64,000 nucleotides of DNA, taken from the NCBI GenBank assembly GCA_023551395.1, contig GCA_023551395.1_3945.1; one strand, written 5' to 3'. The DNA comes from a phage. Positions 29-4,837 of this stretch are shown piece by piece (the first letter of the stretch is position 1; each line of letters begins with the position of its first letter). Made by a program: the position numbers and the translations under genes. The notes under the pieces were generated by a model. It searched no databases, was not told the DNA's origin, and was given only the letters and a program-made list of their open reading frames with translations.

Positions 29-105
29 GGTTAGGAAGCACATAAGGTATGTGCGGTCGCCTGTTAAGCGAATGGCACAGGGTTCGAATCCCTGACTAAC
101 CGCCA
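29..105 (+). tRNA. tRNA-Asn (anticodon GTT)
   Basis: Cloverleaf read by hand: T-arm CAGGG-TTCGAAT-CCCTG, anticodon loop CTGTTAA, 6/7 acceptor pairs, encoded CCA. Confidence 0.7.
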
Positions 106-113
106 AATTAAAT

Positions 114-201
114 GTGTCGTTATCCCGTAGATGGTAGCGGTGGGGACTGTAAATCCCTTGTCATTGAGACTCGGTAGGTTCGACTCCTACACGGCACACC
201 A
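114..201 (+). tRNA. tRNA-Tyr (anticodon GTA), long variable arm
   Basis: Acceptor GTGTCGT/ACGGCAC, anticodon stem GGGGA/TCCCT with loop CTGTAAA, ~15-nt variable arm, T-arm GTAGG-TTCGACT-CCTAC, CCA encoded. Confidence 0.75.
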
Positions 202-207
202 AATAAA

Positions 208-285
208 GGTTATGTAGTTTAATCTGGTTAAAATACTCCCCTGTCACGGGAGATGATGAGGGTTCAAATCCCTTCGTAACCGCCA
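208..285 (+). tRNA. tRNA-Asp (anticodon GTC)
   Basis: Acceptor GGTTATG/CGTAACC, anticodon stem CTCCC/GGGAG loop CTGTCAC, T-loop TTCAAAT, CCA encoded. Confidence 0.8.
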
Positions 286-744
286 AATTATAATAAGTAT
301 TTCAAAATGATGTTTTGAGAGGGCTATTTAGCCCCTCCCTTAAAGAGTTCTTACGAGTATTCTTTAAAGGAGCAGAAGACCAAATTCAGCAAATATGTAT
401 GATATTTTCAAGCCAATTTAATTTTGAAAAAATTTAAAACTTGGTCTGGCTCAACAAATTTACAGAAGACCGTTTACAGCAAAAACTTAAACAATCTATT
501 TCTCCGGTAAAGAAAAGGCGAAGGTTCGATTCCTTCACTCGGCAGATGTCGAGTTGGTGTAATGGTAGCACTTAAGATGATAAACAACGGTCTGGTAATT
601 ATCTTTGTAGATAAGTTATTAAGCTTACCTGTGAGTATGCGACCACAAAGGGTGAAAGGGTAAATTCTAGATTTAAACCCAACAAGGCACATCGCTACAG
701 ACCTTAAGCAAGTCTGGGTAGCTTATCTACAAAGATAATTTAAT

Positions 745-820
745 GGAAGTGTAGCAGAATGGTGATGCGGCAGACTTTTAATCTGACAGGCGATGGGTTC
801 GAATCCCTCCACTTCTACCA
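745..820 (+). tRNA. tRNA-Lys (anticodon TTT), atypical weak T-stem
   Basis: Acceptor GGAAGTG/CACTTCT, 3-bp D-stem GCA/TGC, anticodon loop CTTTTAA, T-arm ATGGG-TTCGAAT-CCCTC with only 3 clean pairs, CCA encoded. Confidence 0.6.
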
Positions 821-824
821 AAAT

Positions 825-901
825 GGTTCAGTCGCAGATAAGGTAATGCAAGGGTCTCATAAGCCCTATGAATGTGGGTTCGATTCCCATCTGAACCTCC
901 A
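825..901 (+). tRNA. tRNA-Met (anticodon CAT; could be elongator, initiator or lysidine-Ile)
   Basis: Acceptor GGTTCAG/CTGAACC, anticodon stem AGGGT/GCCCT loop CTCATAA, T-loop TTCGATT, CCA encoded. Confidence 0.7.
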
Positions 902-902
902 A

Positions 903-978
903 GCTGGTATAGTTAAGAAGGTTATAACACTCCCCTGATAAGGGAACATCGGTGGTTCGATTCCACCTACCAGTACCA
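903..978 (+). tRNA. tRNA-Ile (anticodon GAT)
   Basis: Acceptor GCTGGTA/TACCAGT, anticodon loop CTGATAA, T-arm GGTGG-TTCGATT-CCACC, CCA encoded. Confidence 0.75.
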
Positions 979-993
979 ATTTCAATAAAGTTG

Positions 994-1022
994 TTGACAT
1001 TGAGATGTGACCACTTTATAGT
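994..1022 (+). promoter_or_regulatory. sigma70-like promoter (TTGACA, 17-bp spacer, TATAGT) inside the tRNA array
   Basis: Near-consensus -35 at 994-999 and -10 at 1017-1022 with a 17-bp spacer; followed by ~200 nt of non-tRNA leader before tRNA-Arg. Confidence 0.5.
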
Positions 1023-1226
1023 AACCTTAGTTTTCGTTGCGTAGCGTCTATTTTGCAAATTTAAAATAAATGCAAACGACAATGTTTTTCTGGCAGTAGC
1101 TTGATAGGCTAAACACCAGTGAGGTCTTCCAATCCCTCATCAAAGAATTTGGCGTACTCGCCCACGGTATGATTAATAAGGTGGGCATCTTTAAGGGCTT
1201 TCTAAGAGAGTCTTTAAAGATTAATG

Positions 1227-1302
1227 CACCCTTAGTTCAATTGGATAGAGCAACGGTCTTCTAAATCGTTAGTTACAGGTTCGAATCCTGTAGGGTGTGC
1301 CA
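1227..1302 (+). tRNA. tRNA-Arg (anticodon TCT)
   Basis: Acceptor GCACCCT/AGGGTGT, D-arm GTTC-AATTGGATA-GAGC, anticodon stem ACGGT/ATCGT loop CTTCTAA, T-arm ACAGG-TTCGAAT-CCTGT, CCA encoded. Confidence 0.8.
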
Positions 1303-1444
1303 AATAGTTAGCAGATTACTTATACGACCTAAGCGGGTCTTCCTGTAGGGAGGTGGTCTGTATCTCATGTTTTCCAGAACATGTAAATAATCTGAGAAGG
1401 GGCTTTACAGTGTTGAGATAATACGGTAAGCTTCGAATTATAGT

Positions 1445-1527
1445 ATGGGACGATGTTAAGACTCTAAGGCATGAGCAACGGCCTCCAAAACCGTTTCAAA
1501 GGGGTTCAACTCCTCCGTCCCATGCCA
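1445..1527 (+). tRNA. tRNA-Trp-like (anticodon CCA) with enlarged D-region
   Basis: Perfect acceptor ATGGGAC/GTCCCAT, anticodon loop CTCCAAA as in bacterial tRNA-Trp, G discriminator, T-loop TTCAACT; 26 nt between acceptor and anticodon stem instead of ~19. Confidence 0.5.
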
Positions 1528-1540
1528 AAGTCTTATTAGG

Positions 1541-1628
1541 GGTAGGTAGCGGCTAATGGCAGCCAAACAGTCTTGAAAACTGTTGCCACTGTAGAGATAC
1601 GGTGAGGGTTCGACTCCTTTACTTACCG
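1541..1628 (+). tRNA. tRNA-Ser (anticodon TGA), long variable arm
   Basis: Acceptor GGTAGGT/ACTTACC, D-stem GGCT/AGCC, anticodon stem ACAGT/ACTGT loop CTTGAAA, ~20-nt variable arm, T-loop TTCGACT. Confidence 0.65.
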
Positions 1629-1786
1629 CCTAATAAGATTTAAAGCCAAGCTTCATTCGGATGTTGCTTTGGTATCCCTCGTGTATTGTCGTACACGCAC
1701 AGTAAAGCACCTAGTAGGTGTCACGGAGAAGAGATAATATCAAGCTCTCCAAAGGTTCTAGTCACCGGATTAAACAAGACTATGCA

Positions 1787-1809
1787 AAGACCAAATTAGG
1801 TCTTTTTAG
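1787..1809 (+). terminator. intrinsic terminator-like hairpin within tRNA array
   Basis: Stem AAGACC/GGTCTT with loop AAATTA followed by TTTTT. Confidence 0.45.
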
Positions 1810-1886
1810 AGGGCTTCTAAGGTTATTACAGCTTGTTGTGGAACCTTGTTGCTTAGGTTCTTAGAAGTTCTCTAAAAAGATTTAAT

Positions 1887-1965
1887 GGGAGATTGACGGC
1901 AACTTGGTAGACCTATCTCGCTTAGAACGAGATGCTTGAGGGTTCGAATCCCTTGTCTCCTACCA
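1887..1965 (+). tRNA. tRNA with anticodon TAG (Leu by anticodon) but short variable arm
   Basis: Acceptor GGGAGAT/GTCTCCT, perfect anticodon stem TCTCG/CGAGA with loop CTTAGAA, 5-nt variable loop, T-arm GAGGG-TTCGAAT-CCCTT, A discriminator, CCA encoded. Confidence 0.6.
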
Positions 1966-1972
1966 AATTAAT

Positions 1973-2048
1973 GCAGGTGTAGCAAAATGGTTATGCGGCT
2001 GACTCTTAATCAGTAAGACGATGGGTTCAATTCCCTCCACCTGTACCA
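1973..2048 (+). tRNA. tRNA-Lys (anticodon CTT), paralogue of 745-820
   Basis: Acceptor GCAGGTG/CACCTGT, D-stem GCA/TGC, anticodon stem GCTGA/TCAGT loop CTCTTAA, same atypical T-arm ATGGG-TTCAATT-CCCTC, CCA encoded. Confidence 0.6.
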
Positions 2049-2054
2049 AACAAT

Positions 2055-2129
2055 GGGGTCATAGTTTATATGGTTAAAATTCGAGTTTTGCAAACTTGGG
2101 AACTGAGTTCAATTCTCAGTGACTCCACC
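2055..2129 (+). tRNA. tRNA-Ala (anticodon TGC)
   Basis: Acceptor GGGGTCA/TGACTCC giving the G3:U70 alanine identity pair, anticodon loop TTTGCAA, T-arm CTGAG-TTCAATT-CTCAG, CCA encoded. Confidence 0.8.
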
Positions 2130-2136
2130 AATTAGT

Positions 2137-2211
2137 GCATCCATAGTTTAAACGGGAAAATTACAGTCTTCCAAACTGAGGTTGAGGGTTCGATTCCCTC
2201 TGGATGCTCCA
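2137..2211 (+). tRNA. tRNA-Gly (anticodon TCC)
   Basis: Perfect acceptor GCATCCA/TGGATGC, anticodon loop CTTCCAA, T-arm GAGGG-TTCGATT-CCCTC, CCA encoded. Confidence 0.75.
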
Positions 2212-2218
2212 AATTAAT

Positions 2219-2294
2219 GCTCCTATCGTATAATTGGTTATTACGGTTGCCTTGTAAGCAACTTATCAGGGTTCGAGTCCTTGTGGGAGCACCA
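2219..2294 (+). tRNA. tRNA-Thr (anticodon TGT)
   Basis: Acceptor GCTCCTA/TGGGAGC, perfect anticodon stem GTTGC/GCAAC loop CTTGTAA, T-loop TTCGAGT, CCA encoded. Confidence 0.8.
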
Positions 2295-2390
2295 ATTCAG
2301 AGGTCAAGTGAAAGACCGCTTTGAGTCAACTGAAGACCGTAACAAATTCCACGGAGTTGAGTTAGCGGCACAACTCCAGACCTCTTTCAT

Positions 2391-2465
2391 ACTCGCTTAG
2401 TTTATATGGTAAAACATCACCCTTACAAGATGAAGAAAAAGGTTCAAGTCCTTTAGTGAGTACCA
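2391..2465 (+). tRNA. tRNA-Val (anticodon TAC), A1 start
   Basis: Acceptor ACTCGCT/AGTGAGT, D-stem GTTT/AAAC, anticodon loop CTTACAA with one C-A mismatch in stem, T-arm AAAGG-TTCAAGT-CCTTT, CCA encoded. Confidence 0.6.
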
Positions 2466-2466
2466 T

Positions 2467-2544
2467 GTTCCAGTATCCCAATTGGCAGAGGATGCAAGCT
2501 CAAACCTTGTACTAGTGACGGTTCGAATCCGTCTTGGAACACCA
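2467..2544 (+). tRNA. tRNA with anticodon CAA (Leu by anticodon) but short variable arm
   Basis: Acceptor GTTCCAG/TTGGAAC, anticodon stem GCAAG/CTTGT loop CTCAAAC, 6-nt variable loop, T-arm GACGG-TTCGAAT-CCGTC, A discriminator, CCA encoded. Confidence 0.6.
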
Positions 2545-2549
2545 ATTTT

Positions 2550-2625
2550 GCAGGATTAGTTCAAATGGATAGAGCAACAGTCTACGAAGCTGTTAATAGG
2601 GGTTCGAATCCCTTATCCTGCGCCA
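2550..2625 (+). tRNA. tRNA-Arg (anticodon ACG)
   Basis: Perfect acceptor GCAGGAT/ATCCTGC, D-arm GTTC-AAATGGATA-GAGC, anticodon stem ACAGT/GCTGT loop CTACGAA, T-loop TTCGAAT, CCA encoded. Confidence 0.8.
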
Positions 2626-2643
2626 GATAAGCAAGAGGAATTT

Positions 2644-2886
2644 ATGCAAACATTAATCGTCGTTGAACATGAAAATCCCAATAGTATTGAGTTTGTAAGG
2701 GTTCCCACTATAGATACCCACATTTTCTTGAAAGTCGGATGGGAATGCGACCCAATAAAAGTAGAAAGATTTATTGGTCATTGCTTTGGTGGAAGACAAC
2801 TTAAAAGCGTCAATTTTGAGACAATGTTACCAGAAAGCTCAGAAACAAATAATAATGCTTACCTCCTTACGAGGGTTAGACAATGA
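2644..2886 (+). CDS. hypothetical small protein inside tRNA array
   Basis: 80-aa ORF with GAGGA ribosome-binding site upstream of ATG; stop overlaps start of next ORF (ATGA). Confidence 0.4.
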   Translation: MQTLIVVEHENPNSIEFVRVPTIDTHIFLKVGWECDPIKVERFIGHCFGGRQLKSVNFETMLPESSETNNNAYLLTRVRQ

Positions 2887-3440
2887 GATACTTAAAATAT
2901 GTTTCATGGATTTTCTTAGCTTTGTTAGAACCATTTGCAGCAACCCTAGCAGTCATCTTAGCACCTTTCGTAGTTCCATTCTACAGTGAGAAGAAAGGAC
3001 ATCTACCTTTTGGATTCAGATGGATGGAGACCTATGACAACCCGATTGATGGTGATGAAGGCCACGTTAAAAGATGGGCTAAGATTAGAAAGATTGGTAA
3101 GCTGGGTGTCTACATGCAGAGAGTTGGATGGCTCTGGAGAAACAAAGCTTATAACTTCTCTTACCATGTATTAGGAAGAGATGTAAAAGATGTTACTAAG
3201 TGGAAAGGTAATATCAACGTAAGTTCTGACCCTGAAGATAATCAGACTGGTTATCTCCTAATGTGGAACAGTAATGCTTGGGGATTATTCGCTTTTATCC
3301 CATCAATTAAAGTCTTTGGTAAACAGTTTTACTGGAGAATTTATATTGGATGGAAACTAAAAAGTGTTGTCCCAGAAGAAAGAGCATTCTCAAGGGAAAG
3401 AGTTATGTTGGCATTCTTTATTCATCCACTGAGAAAGTAA
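2883..3440 (+). CDS. hypothetical membrane protein (Trp-rich) inside tRNA array
   Basis: 185-aa ORF with hydrophobic N-terminal segment; translationally coupled to upstream ORF; no recognisable catalytic motif. Confidence 0.5.
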   Translation: MRYLKYVSWIFLALLEPFAATLAVILAPFVVPFYSEKKGHLPFGFRWMETYDNPIDGDEGHVKRWAKIRKIGKLGVYMQRVGWLWRNKAYNFSYHVLGRDVKDVTKWKGNINVSSDPEDNQTGYLLMWNSNAWGLFAFIPSIKVFGKQFYWRIYIGWKLKSVVPEERAFSRERVMLAFFIHPLRK

Positions 3441-3448
3441 AGATTTAA

Positions 3449-3524
3449 AGGGGATTAGTTTACAAGGTTAAAACCTCGGTCTTTGAAATCGAAGAAGTTG
3501 GTTCAATTCCAACATCCCCCGCCA
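3449..3524 (+). tRNA. tRNA-Gln (anticodon TTG)
   Basis: Acceptor AGGGGAT/ATCCCCC with 1:72 mismatch, D-stem GTTT/AAAC, anticodon stem TCGGT/ATCGA loop CTTTGAA, T-arm GTTGG-TTCAATT-CCAAC, CCA encoded. Confidence 0.7.
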
Positions 3525-3526
3525 AT

Positions 3527-3605
3527 GCTCCATTACTCCAATTGGCAGAGAGGCCAGACTTAAAATCTGTGTTATGTATCGGTTCGAATCCGATATGGAG
3601 TACCA
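3527..3605 (+). tRNA. tRNA with anticodon TAA (Leu by anticodon) but short variable arm
   Basis: Acceptor GCTCCAT/ATGGAGT, anticodon stem CAGA/TCTG loop CTTAAAA, 7-nt variable loop, perfect T-arm ATCGG-TTCGAAT-CCGAT, A discriminator, CCA encoded. Confidence 0.6.
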
Positions 3606-3610
3606 AATTT

Positions 3611-3685
3611 AGCGGTATAGCATAACTGGCAATGCAACAGTCTCTGAAGCTGTCCTATTAAGGTTCAAATCCTTATGCCGCTGCC
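3611..3685 (+). tRNA. tRNA-Gln (anticodon CTG)
   Basis: Acceptor AGCGGTA/TGCCGCT, D-stem GCAT/ATGC, anticodon stem ACAGT/GCTGT loop CTCTGAA, perfect T-arm TAAGG-TTCAAAT-CCTTA, CCA encoded. Confidence 0.65.
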
Positions 3686-3717
3686 ACTTCTAAGGGTTCT
3701 TACGAGAGTCCTTAAAT

Positions 3718-3793
3718 GTGGCCTTATCATAAATGGTAATGACCCATGCTGTGAACATGGTCTATACGGGTTCAAATCCCGTAGGTCACCCCA
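3718..3793 (+). tRNA. tRNA-His (anticodon GTG)
   Basis: Acceptor GTGGCCT/AGGTCAC, perfect D-stem TCAT/ATGA, perfect anticodon stem CCATG/CATGG loop CTGTGAA, C discriminator, CCA encoded. Confidence 0.8.
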
Positions 3794-3798
3794 ATTTA

Positions 3799-3875
3799 TA
3801 GTCCAAGTAGCTTATATGGTTAAAGCGCGTGTCTGAAAAACATGAGAAGAGGGTTCAAATCCCACTGGACTACCA
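3799..3875 (+). tRNA. tRNA-Phe (anticodon GAA), irregular acceptor/D junction
   Basis: Anticodon stem CGTGT/ACATG loop CTGAAAA, D-stem GCTT/AAGC, T-loop TTCAAAT; exact 5' end ambiguous between 3799 and 3801. Confidence 0.6.
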
Positions 3876-3891
3876 ATTTCAAAGGTGCTTA

Positions 3892-4626
3892 ATGAAAGAG
3901 ATGACAGAACAAGGTAAGGAGATTTTTAATCTCTTAAAAACCGGTAAAGGGTTCTCTAACCCACTTATTACTGGTGCAGCAGTTCTCGGTGGAACCGTAG
4001 CTGCTTCTACATCACTTGTAAGCTCTATTAGTTCTGTAACAGACCCTACAATGAAGGAGAAACTTGTTGCTGCTGGACTTACAACAGTCCTTCTAAACAG
4101 CTTTACAACAAGCCTTACAAGCACTACAGCAACTACTAAGACCCTAACAGACTACGGTCAAAAGTCTATTGATGAGTTTTCATCACGTATGCAGGTAGCA
4201 AAGGGATACTCCAATGTTATGGGTGCAGCAGGAGAACAAGTTGGTTGTACACCATTCAGTGGTATTATGGGTGTTGCTACAGAGTATGGTCAAAAAGCTA
4301 TTAACATGATTAACAGTACACTAGATAGTGTTAATGGTGTATTAAGTGACTTACAAGATGCTATTGATAAGGGTCTTGATACTGTTTCTGATTTAGCTAA
4401 CCAAGCTGTCAGTAAGATTAATGAAGGTATCTCAAAGATTACCGCTTATGCAGATGAAGTTGTGCAGATGATTGAAGAAGAAGCTTCCCTTATTGCAGAG
4501 TACCTTAAAACGAATATCAATGGGTTCTTAGCAGGTATCTTACCAGACTGGTTTGATGATGCTTGTAAAACTGGTGTGATTGACACTATTGCAACACCAG
4601 AAATGAAGAACGCATTACAGAAATAA
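3892..4626 (+). CDS. hypothetical Ser/Thr/Ala-rich protein
   Basis: ORF-track frame 3829-4626, start moved to internal ATG at 3892 (AAAGG ribosome-binding site) because upstream part overlaps tRNA-Phe. Confidence 0.5.
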   Translation: MKEMTEQGKEIFNLLKTGKGFSNPLITGAAVLGGTVAASTSLVSSISSVTDPTMKEKLVAAGLTTVLLNSFTTSLTSTTATTKTLTDYGQKSIDEFSSRMQVAKGYSNVMGAAGEQVGCTPFSGIMGVATEYGQKAINMINSTLDSVNGVLSDLQDAIDKGLDTVSDLANQAVSKINEGISKITAYADEVVQMIEEEASLIAEYLKTNINGFLAGILPDWFDDACKTGVIDTIATPEMKNALQK

Positions 4627-4627
4627 T

Positions 4628-4720
4628 GGAAGATTAACCCTAAAAGGTAAGGGAGCAGTTTGCTAAACTGCCAGTAGCTGAGAAATCGGTGTACCAGTTC
4701 AAGTCTGGTATCTTCCTCCA
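4628..4720 (+). tRNA. tRNA-Ser (anticodon GCT), long variable arm
   Basis: Perfect acceptor GGAAGAT/ATCTTCC, perfect anticodon stem GCAGT/ACTGC loop TTGCTAA, ~21-nt variable arm, T-arm ACCAG-TTCAAGT-CTGGT, CCA encoded. Confidence 0.8.
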
Positions 4721-4724
4721 ATTT

Positions 4725-4799
4725 GAATCCGTGACAGAAATGGCTATGTGCCTGTCTGCAAAACAGGTTTATAAGGGTTCGAGTCCCTTCGGATTCTCC
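4725..4799 (+). tRNA. tRNA-Cys (anticodon GCA)
   Basis: Perfect acceptor GAATCCG/CGGATTC, perfect anticodon stem CCTGT/ACAGG loop CTGCAAA, T-arm AAGGG-TTCGAGT-CCCTT, CCA encoded. Confidence 0.75.
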
Positions 4800-4837
4800 A
4801 AGTTATTTTACTCTCTCTCAATTAAAATAATAATAAT

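Follow-up and report, generated by a model that had tools for sequence, protein, structure and literature searches.

Short-arm leucine tRNA genes within the tRNA array of a Felix O1-like phage

Three leucine tRNA genes of type I

The stretch of DNA analysed here, 64,000 nt of phage origin from GenBank assembly GCA_023551395.1 (contig GCA_023551395.1_3945.1; hereafter the window), opens inside a tRNA array in which three genes carry the leucine anticodons UAG, CAA and UAA but lack the long variable arm of class II (type II) tRNAs. Its first 5 kb are 94–98% identical to many Felixounavirus genomes, among them Salmonella phage UAB_69, KhF1 and E. coli O157 typing phages; the window is that of a Felixounavirus, with Salmonella and E. 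coli as hosts. The three genes, all called by ARAGORN, are as follows:

1887–1965, plus strand: tRNA-Leu(UAG), type I, 79 nt including the encoded CCA
2467–2544, plus strand: tRNA-Leu(CAA), type I, 78 nt including the encoded CCA
3527–3605, plus strand: tRNA-Leu(UAA), type I, 79 nt including the encoded CCA

An earlier sequence-only reading of this DNA had proposed three leucine-anticodon tRNAs of 78–79 nt with variable loops of 5–7 nt. ARAGORN bears out both measures and returns identical coordinates, anticodon registers and anticodon-loop sequences, the 7-nt loops being CTTAGAA (UAG), CTCAAAC (CAA) and CTTAAAA (UAA). The general tRNA model of Rfam matches the same three regions with scores of 30.5 (UAG), 43.6 (CAA) and 47.5 bits (UAA), all of which exceed its gathering score of 29 bits. 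In the ARAGORN cloverleaves the acceptor stems comprise 7 bp and the anticodon stems, as drawn, 4–6 bp, while the T loop is TTCGAAT in every case. The variable region is unpaired and contains no helix; it amounts to 5 nt (TGCTT) in the UAG gene, 5–6 nt (ACTAGT) in the CAA gene and 7 nt (GTTATGT) in the UAA gene. Position 73 is A in all three, in agreement with the A discriminator noted earlier, and is followed by an encoded CCA. The terminal 1–72 pair is G1·U72 in the UAG and UAA tRNAs and G1–C72 in the CAA tRNA. The claim that the array holds no long-arm tRNA-Leu also stands, and applies to the entire 64-kb window, where ARAGORN found neither a long-arm tRNA-Leu nor any further tRNA-Leu. Six tRNALeu genes fetched from E. 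coli K-12 (leuW, leuZ, leuX, leuV, leuP and leuQ) measure 85–87 nt. The short-arm character of the three phage genes is confirmed.

The D arms fall into two kinds. Those of the CAA and UAA tRNAs read UCC-CAAUUGGCAGA-GGA and CUC-CAAUUGGCAGA-GAG, respectively, the former with the spacing of E. coli tRNALeu. That of the UAG tRNA (GACGG-CAACUUGGUAGA-CCU) is irregular, with 2–3 bp and 1–2 extra nucleotides (CAACUUGG) in the region of G18G19 and A20a. In the standard register its stem would consist of A–U, C·C and G–C, and in the ARAGORN register of two G–C pairs; no change that discriminates between these registers was found among five family members.

Leucine identity, conservation and decoding

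Leucine identity in E. coli resides in A73, A15–U48, G18G19, A20a and the tertiary contacts of the D loop with the T loop, and is independent of the anticodon and of the long arm (PMC9976931). Arm-less variants of E. coli tRNALeu remain active (review PMC9976931, for Larkin et al. 2002). When the three phage genes are set beside leuW, leuZ, leuX and leuV of E. coli K-12, the D arms of the CAA and UAA tRNAs (N3-C-A14-A15-U-U-G18-G19-C-A20a-G-A22-N3) correspond position for position to those of the four host genes (G/A-AAUYGGUAGA-C). They share with E. coli tRNALeu an unusual 3-bp D stem with a 13·22 mismatch, and they place G18G19 and A20a at tRNALeu spacing, as in leuV. All three phage tRNAs have U8, A14, A15 and, as the last variable nucleotide, U48 (nucleotides rather than pairs were checked), and their T loops supply U54, U55, C56 and A58. 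To judge from these positions, the phage genes have a D arm, U48, T loop and A73 of the bacterial tRNALeu kind, and the long class II variable arm is absent from all three.

The host genes leuW (UAG), leuX (CAA) and leuZ (UAA) have the same anticodons as the phage genes. They likewise possess A73, U8, A14, A15, G18G19, A20a, A22, U48 at the end of the variable region, U54, U55, C56 and A58, and the G1·U72 pair of leuZ recurs in two of the three phage tRNAs. The stems have diverged from E. coli tRNALeu, with a core identity of 0.55–0.64. The chief distinguishing feature is the variable arm, a 13–16-nt stem-loop in the 85–87-nt host genes as against 5–7 unpaired nucleotides in the phage genes, although anticodon-loop positions 32, 37 and 38 differ as well. 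The phage UAG tRNA (loop CUUAGAA) has C32, A37 and A38, whereas leuW has U32, G37 and U38, so that the phage tRNA offers no G37 for m1G.

Every one of the 20 short-arm Leu tRNAs in the phage alignment described below has A37, including those with UAG and AAG anticodons, while E. coli leuW (UAG) and leuV (CAG) carry G37. G37 is the site of m1G37 methylation by TrmD. In the CAA tRNA, C38 breaks the A36-A37-A38 motif used by MiaA. The phage Leu tRNAs may bypass these host anticodon-loop modifications.

The sequence-only reading had allowed that the tRNAs might be charged with another amino acid, which would amount to recoding or deliberate mistranslation of UUR and CUA codons. Class I architecture is typical of every bacterial tRNA other than those for Leu, Ser and Tyr, and a yeast mitochondrial tRNA with a UAG anticodon is charged with Thr or Ala (PMC7609411). 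This proposal was not upheld when the meaning of the codons was examined by aligning window proteins with their homologues in phiEa104, Wc4 and Rocket (29–70% identity). TTA, TTG and CTA stand opposite leucine in 65%, 52% and 64% of cases, much like the other leucine codons (CTT 62%, CTC 46%, CTG 65%), and the non-leucine remainder is mostly Met, Ile and Val. The alignments thus give no hint of recoding of TTA, TTG or CTA. Read against the published identity rules (PMC9976931), none of the three tRNAs has G3:U70, G73 or an anticodon that serves another synthetase as an identity element. Their D arm is specific to tRNALeu, and the tRNALeu of the host would compete for the same codons. Charging with an amino acid other than leucine therefore appears highly improbable.

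The genes are widely conserved. A total of 406 records match the first 5 kb of the window, at 80–98% identity, and each Leu gene is present in 176–292 phage records, usually labelled tRNA-Leu and sometimes tRNA-OTHER, Undet or Pseudo. Of 292 phage records with the CAA gene, 248 have it at 95% identity or more, and of 264 with the UAA gene, 216 have it at 99% or more; among the relatives fetched, both genes show single loop substitutions. The UAG gene, mostly annotated as tRNA-Leu in 176 phage records, occurs as three alleles of 80–100% identity. Between two of these the anticodon stem changes from TCTCG/CGAGA to CCATC/GTTGG, a largely compensatory exchange that leaves one U·U mismatch in the latter. 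The Felix O1 genome paper of 2010 lists these Leu tRNAs without comment on their shape, and includes Leu[TTA] among the codons helped by phage tRNA (PMC3185647). All three genes, annotated before, are ordinary constituents of the Felix O1 tRNA complement. Felix O1-like DNA that is 96.5% identical to the tRNA region of the window is also found in GenBank record GU169904, "Staphylococcus phage SA1" (147 kb), which is probably chimeric or contaminated.

In a wider comparison, 20 distinct short-arm Leu tRNAs from 12 phages were aligned, the phages including Felixounavirus, Suspvirus and Kolesnikvirus members, Wc4, Acinetobacter phage Rocket, the T5-like TrudiRoth, Aeromonas phage Akh-2, Lactobacillus phage LpeD and a Mycobacterium prophage. 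U8, A14, A15, G18, G19, A20a, A22, U33, A35, A37 and U48 are invariant, as are G53, U54, C56, A58, C61 and A73 (20/20 tRNAs) in the 3′ part, and U55 is nearly so. Standard pairs occupy 97.5% of the 400 stem cells, and 18 of the 20 pairs, in all four stems, have changed on both sides in a compensatory manner. In a control in which the 3′ partners were slid by 1–3 columns, pairing dropped to 35–48%. Comparison of covariation with the tRNAs of related phages, as suggested with the sequence-only reading, thus upholds the class I cloverleaf, and the pattern reads as the signature of working tRNAs.

The same data bear on whether the genes could be decaying or non-functional relics, that is, pseudogenes that have lost the arm. 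Such a view could draw on the GenBank labels tRNA-OTHER, Undet or Pseudo in some records, on the mismatches in the stems and on the 30.5 Rfam bits of the UAG gene. Hundreds of genomes nevertheless carry the genes in near-identical form, although the 5 kb around them are at 80–98%, and compensatory changes are seen in four stems across the 12 phages. The tertiary and identity nucleotides are invariant, CCA is encoded, and the same architecture recurs in phages whose hosts are Proteobacteria, Firmicutes and Actinobacteria. Pseudogenes are recognised by stems that are broken, by the loss of universal nucleotides or by an absence of purifying selection, none of which characterises these genes, and we regard their being relics as very unlikely.

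[quoted passage not shown] They would be transcribed within the phage tRNA array and processed to mature tRNAs with the encoded CCA, and the host LeuRS would recognise them through A73 and the elbow. The UAA tRNA would read UUA and UUG, the CAA tRNA UUG, and the UAG tRNA CUA and perhaps other CUN codons. In 59 open reading frames (ORFs) of the window (39% GC), the leucine codons are distributed as TTA 27%, CTT 27%, CTG 15%, TTG 14%, CTA 12% and CTC 6%. In E. coli, CUG accounts for about half of the leucine codons and CUA for about 4%, and the three phage anticodons therefore cover codons that the phage over-uses. The phage tRNAs may accordingly supplement scarce host tRNAs for UUA, UUG and CUA.

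A phage-encoded LeuRS was considered and rejected, as no synthetase was identified by Pfam among the eight largest ORFs of the window (64 kb of a genome of about 87 kb), which comprise DNA polymerase A, a tail fibre, the large subunit of ribonucleotide reductase (RNR), NrdD, a tape measure protein, a primase-helicase, an NAPRTase and one protein without a match. Any charging would thus have to be done by the host LeuRS.

Several observations weigh against functional leucine tRNAs charged in this way. The D arm of the UAG tRNA is weak, with a C·C mismatch or a register shift, and its Rfam score is only 30.5 bits; the UAA tRNA has a C27·U43 mismatch at the top of the anticodon stem. Single-sequence minimum free energy (MFE) folding gives the CAA and UAA tRNAs shapes other than a cloverleaf, favoured by 3–4 kcal/mol, and brings only the UAG tRNA near one. 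Such predictions were judged uninformative for short AT-rich tRNAs, and covariation was relied on instead. The label "Leu" is not independent evidence, since ARAGORN isotype names rest on the anticodon alone, and the comparison of codon meaning comprises only 13–72 codons per class. The most direct objection is biochemical. In vitro, Streptomyces coelicolor type I tRNALeu(CAA) could not be aminoacylated by the E. coli enzyme (EcLeuRS), and the authors state that EcLeuRS charges type II tRNALeu only (PMC6614811). This failure is real evidence against charging, but A73 is preserved in the phage tRNAs along with the rest of the E. coli identity set, and EcLeuRS depends on A73, whereas the S. coelicolor enzyme (ScoLeuRS) does not (PMC6614811). 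From the identity nucleotides we infer charging by the host LeuRS.

Other elements of the tRNA array

The following further features of the array lie on the plus strand:

29–4800, plus strand: tRNA array of 23 ARAGORN-called tRNAs, mostly 2–10 nt apart, with three ORFs interspersed
114–201, plus strand: tRNA-Tyr(GUA), long variable arm, 88 nt (ARAGORN; internal comparator)
1541–1630, plus strand: tRNA-Ser(UGA), long variable arm, 90 nt (ARAGORN; internal comparator)
2644–2886, plus strand: ORF inside the array, phrog_14202, a family without known function
2883–3440, plus strand: ORF inside the array, DUF7338/phrog_2143, a family without known function
3892–4626, plus strand: ORF inside the array, DUF7217/phrog_2114, a family without known function
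4628–4720, plus strand: tRNA-Ser(GCU), long variable arm, 93 nt (ARAGORN; internal comparator)

The 5′ end of the array is cut by the start of the window, which opens at the Asn gene. In the relatives UAB_Phi87 and Mordin the gene order runs Pro, Glu, Met, Asn and onward. The sequence-only reading had remarked on the lack of tRNA-Pro and tRNA-Glu, and neither is present within the window; as a real gap, however, this is an artefact of the window edge, because the window begins at Asn, downstream of the Pro, Glu and Met genes in the relatives. In phiEa104 and Wc4, too, the DUF7217 protein (45% and 39% identity, respectively) is encoded between blocks of tRNA genes.

A conserved tRNA-Trp-like gene at 1445–1527 (plus strand) is missed by ARAGORN at default settings. 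It has A1–U72 and G73, its CCA is encoded, and its anticodon loop, CUCCAAA, is closed by a C31·A39 mismatch unless it is drawn as a 9-nt loop on a 5-bp stem. The T stem has 4 bp and the acceptor stem possibly 8 bp. The D hairpin (CTC-TAAGGCAT-GAG) is preceded by a connector of about 9–10 nt (GATGTTAAGA) in place of the usual 2 nt. The gene is kept in UAB_Phi87, SUSP2, Mordin and Wc4, with fully compensatory changes in the anticodon stem (AACGG/CCGTT, GTAAG/CTTAC and GTAGG/CCTAC) and in the D stem (CTC/GAG, CAC/GTG and ACA/TGT), and no other tRNA-Trp was found in the Felix O1-like arrays looked at. It may be an aberrantly built Trp tRNA.

At 487–590 (plus strand), the 3′ half of a tRNA (T arm and 3′ strand of the acceptor) is followed immediately by a segment resembling a 5′ half (GTCGAGTTGGTGTAATGGTAGCAC), the first 7 nt of which can pair with the preceding ACTCGGC. 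Positions 487–537 score 22 bits with the Rfam tRNA model, and the element is 100% conserved in UAB_Phi87. It would be either a permuted tRNA or a disrupted remnant. Between tRNA-Asp and tRNA-Lys lies a long, near-perfect hairpin (597–741; the segment 540–745 folds at −57 kcal/mol) that is identical in UAB_Phi87 and partly conserved in Mordin and SUSP2. For the corresponding part of the T5 array, records list "stable RNAs of unknown function". The 245-nt spacer from tRNA-Ile to tRNA-Arg contains sub-threshold plus-strand Rfam matches to permuted tmRNA (920–1104, 29.6 bits) and tmRNA (1036–1225, 15.9 bits). Conservation of the spacer extends to Erwinia phage phiEa104 (80% over 135 nt), which is unusually good for a non-coding spacer. 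Finally, tRNA-Ser(UGA) ends in GCC followed by T, so that its CCA is incomplete, unlike the other 3′ ends read, and tRNA-Ser(GCU) has U73 rather than G73, a recognition element of seryl-tRNA synthetase (SerRS) according to a review (PMC7609411).

The presence of such non-canonical tRNA-like elements in the array, together with the "tRNA-like stable RNAs" annotated in the arrays of T5 records, could be taken to favour a non-translational role for the Leu genes as well, in which they would occupy host factors that bind tRNAs, as decoys or sponges, or would mark the polycistronic array transcript for processing. In the Leu genes, however, U33, A35 and A37 are invariant, three anticodons are kept across genera, and the phage over-uses the matching codons; a decoy needs neither a full LeuRS identity set nor CCA. 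A role outside translation is accordingly hard to credit. As far as the genes themselves can tell, conservation, covariation, the meaning of the codons and an identity set that is intact contradict each of the three readings as pseudogenes, recoding tRNAs or decoys.

Distribution of short-arm leucine tRNAs and comparison with known systems

Leu tRNAs of 74–79 nt were called by ARAGORN in phiEa104 (CAA, AAG, UAA), Akh-2 (UAG, CAA, UAA), LpeD (UAG, UAA, CAA), TrudiRoth (UAA, UAG), Rocket (UAG) and prophiGD54-2 (UAG, CAA), so that the short-arm architecture is shared by phages from proteobacterial, firmicute and actinobacterial hosts. Wc4 has a Leu(UAG) tRNA of this size beside an 87-nt Leu(UAA). 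The Ser and Tyr tRNAs of all these phages are long. The Leu(UAG) gene next to Ala is a 77-nt type I gene in TrudiRoth and an 85-nt type II gene in T5, whose record notes that the Leu(UAG) tRNA becomes an amber suppressor on replacement of its anticodon. Evidently, E. coli phages make use of both forms of Leu tRNA.

Pattern scans of IMG/VR yielded at least 120 short-arm and at least 120 long-arm loci; among the matches listed, loci with the short-arm pattern hold on average 11 tRNAs and those with the long-arm pattern 5.5. Prevalence was estimated from two small samples chosen without reference to Leu, by tRNA-Met and tRNA-Arg(UCU) patterns, in which newly fetched loci were counted. Across both samples, 24 of 66 tRNA-Leu (36%) are short-armed (variable region of at most 8 nt). 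In the Arg-anchored sample all Ser (22/22) and Tyr (8/8) tRNAs are long, and the Met-anchored sample contains only one Ser and one Tyr tRNA below 80 nt. The viral variable regions of the Met-anchored sample include intermediate lengths (4–8 and 10–17 nt). The 24 short-arm genes have U8 in 23 cases, A73 in 23, U48 in 22 and the AA..GG.A D loop in 22, the same rates as in the 42 long-arm genes, and the CAA/UAA/UAG trio reappears in unrelated contigs. The suggestion of the sequence-only reading that the three genes are unusual phage leucine tRNAs can therefore be retained as to leucine, for which the D arm, U48, T loop, A73 and covariation speak, but not as to "unusual", given the 24 of 66 viral tRNA-Leu that are short-armed.

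In bacterial genomes the short-arm pattern gave at least 120 loci. Among the matches listed, about 60 of 80 belong to Actinomycetota by their record titles (Nocardia, Gordonia, Mycobacterium, Rhodococcus, Corynebacterium, Arthrobacter, Bifidobacterium and others), the anticodons are UAA in 66 cases, CAA in 33 and UAG in 23, and 88 of 120 Leu loci have the gene as the only tRNA in 8 kb, which marks it as an ordinary chromosomal gene. Chromosomal short-arm tRNALeu is far more widespread than the single Streptomyces case of the literature suggests. One comparative-genomics paper mentions in passing a short-loop tRNALeu(TAG) from a tRNA cluster of Mycobacterium (PMC6582537); the literature searched yielded neither a paper about phage short-arm tRNALeu nor charging or expression data for these tRNAs. 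The short-arm form itself and the annotation of these genes are already known. What is new is that short-arm tRNALeu is common in phage arrays, including those of phages whose hosts have only long-armed tRNALeu.

Outside the phage family, and among the matches listed, core identity is highest to actinobacterial short-arm genes for the CAA and UAA genes (0.74) and to a long-arm (type II) gene from IMG/VR for the UAG gene (0.80). These affinities suggest at least two lineages of short-arm Leu tRNA in this one phage, with the proviso that short sequences carry little phylogenetic signal, and the phage CCCAAUUGGCAGAGG lineage has an apparent link to Actinomycetota. Recent capture from the host was considered as an origin and rejected, as the CAA gene has no blastn match in 5,426 E. 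coli genomes.

Loss of the long arm would be confined to the isotype whose synthetase can do without it, while the Ser and Tyr tRNAs keep theirs. Bacterial tyrosyl-tRNA synthetase (TyrRS) contacts the variable arm. SerRS, for its part, needs it (PMC7609411). Relaxed constraint, with or without a selective benefit, may have permitted the loss. One such benefit, which would add to functional leucine tRNAs rather than replace them, is counter-defence. The long arm would have been the handle or cut site of a nuclease, either a host nuclease directed at tRNAs or a phage nuclease that destroys the type II tRNALeu of the host and spares the phage copies. Escape had also been proposed in the sequence-only reading, there from host anticodon nucleases; what sets the phage tRNAs apart is the variable arm rather than the anticodon loop. 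There is precedent in Septu (PtuAB) and retron-Eco7, which cleave E. coli tRNATyr within the variable loop, and in the tRNATyr of T5, which escapes by a different loop (PMC13096335; PMC11555353). The concentration of short-arm Leu tRNAs in large viral arrays (11 as against 5.5 tRNAs per locus among the matches listed), the recurrence of the CAA/UAA/UAG trio in unrelated contigs and the two or more short-arm lineages suggested by core comparison in this one phage would also suit it. On the other hand, no nuclease that cuts the variable arm of tRNALeu was found in the literature, the known variable-loop cutters being directed at tRNATyr (PMC13096335). The recent report of tRNALeu cleavage by a defence system, Retron-Kva2, puts the cut at U33 in the anticodon loop and not in the variable arm. 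The retention of Ser and Tyr arms in the same arrays is explained equally well by synthetase constraint, and the short form is the normal single chromosomal gene in many Actinomycetota, where an anti-phage logic does not apply. The intermediate variable lengths among the Met-anchored viral genes look like relaxed constraint; together with the actinobacterial copies, they fit it at least as well as selection. We therefore think it unlikely that the long arm was a nuclease target whose loss served counter-defence. Similarly doubtful, though less remote than the relic, recoding and decoy readings, is the broader proposition that arm loss has been recurrent and selected across phages of many hosts, yielding copies that would be chargeable yet invisible to an undescribed nuclease or modifier, of host or phage origin, that recognises the arm. 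A consequence of counter-defence, if it operated, would be the charging of natural type I tRNALeu by an enterobacterial LeuRS in vivo, which goes against the published claim that this enzyme handles type II only. For work on phage tRNAs and tRNA-cleaving defence, the question raised is whether the arm was dropped as useless or as a liability.

Returning to functional isoacceptors charged by the host, the closest parallel is found in Actinomycetota. The type I tRNALeu(CAA) of S. coelicolor was described in 2019, when ScoLeuRS was named the only prokaryotic LeuRS that charges both tRNALeu types, and the exception was presented as a peculiarity of that enzyme (PMC6614811). This tRNA and the chromosomal actinobacterial genes are short-looped and stand alongside type II tRNALeu under a single LeuRS. 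The same coexistence would hold for the phage genes in their host, in part by inference. The actinobacterial D arm (UAGCCC-AAUUGGCAGA-GGC) resembles those of the CAA and UAA genes of the window, and the actinobacterial NCAGU variable loop resembles those of the short-arm tRNALeu of phiEa104 and LpeD. In contrast to the actinobacterial genes, the present ones are phage-borne, lie in an array and encode CCA, and the tRNALeu of the enterobacterial host are all type II. If the host enzyme charges them, as their conservation implies, E. coli LeuRS would naturally serve both tRNA types, and phages would supply a natural series of minimal tRNALeu substrates.

Animal mitochondrial tRNALeu, the textbook case of type I, are also leucine tRNAs without a long arm, with identity carried by A73 and A14 (PMC9976931). 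They differ from the phage genes in being reduced and AT-rich, often with non-canonical D and T loops, and in having a dedicated LeuRS, whereas the elbow of the phage tRNAs is fully canonical. A 2023 review describes tRNALeu as long-armed everywhere but in animal mitochondria (PMC9976931), and the prevalence of the short arm in phages conflicts with such general statements in the recent literature. Among phages, the T5 tRNALeu(UAG) of 85 nt and the Wc4 tRNALeu(UAA) of 87 nt likewise lie in arrays and share the anticodons, A73 and a D loop of the Leu type, but unlike the window genes they retain a variable arm of 13–14 nt. The tRNATyr of T5 offers a further comparison, being a phage class II copy that differs from its host counterpart in the variable region, as do the Leu tRNAs here (PMC13096335). 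In that case the nuclease is identified, the rescue is experimental and the arm is changed, whereas in the present genes it is deleted.

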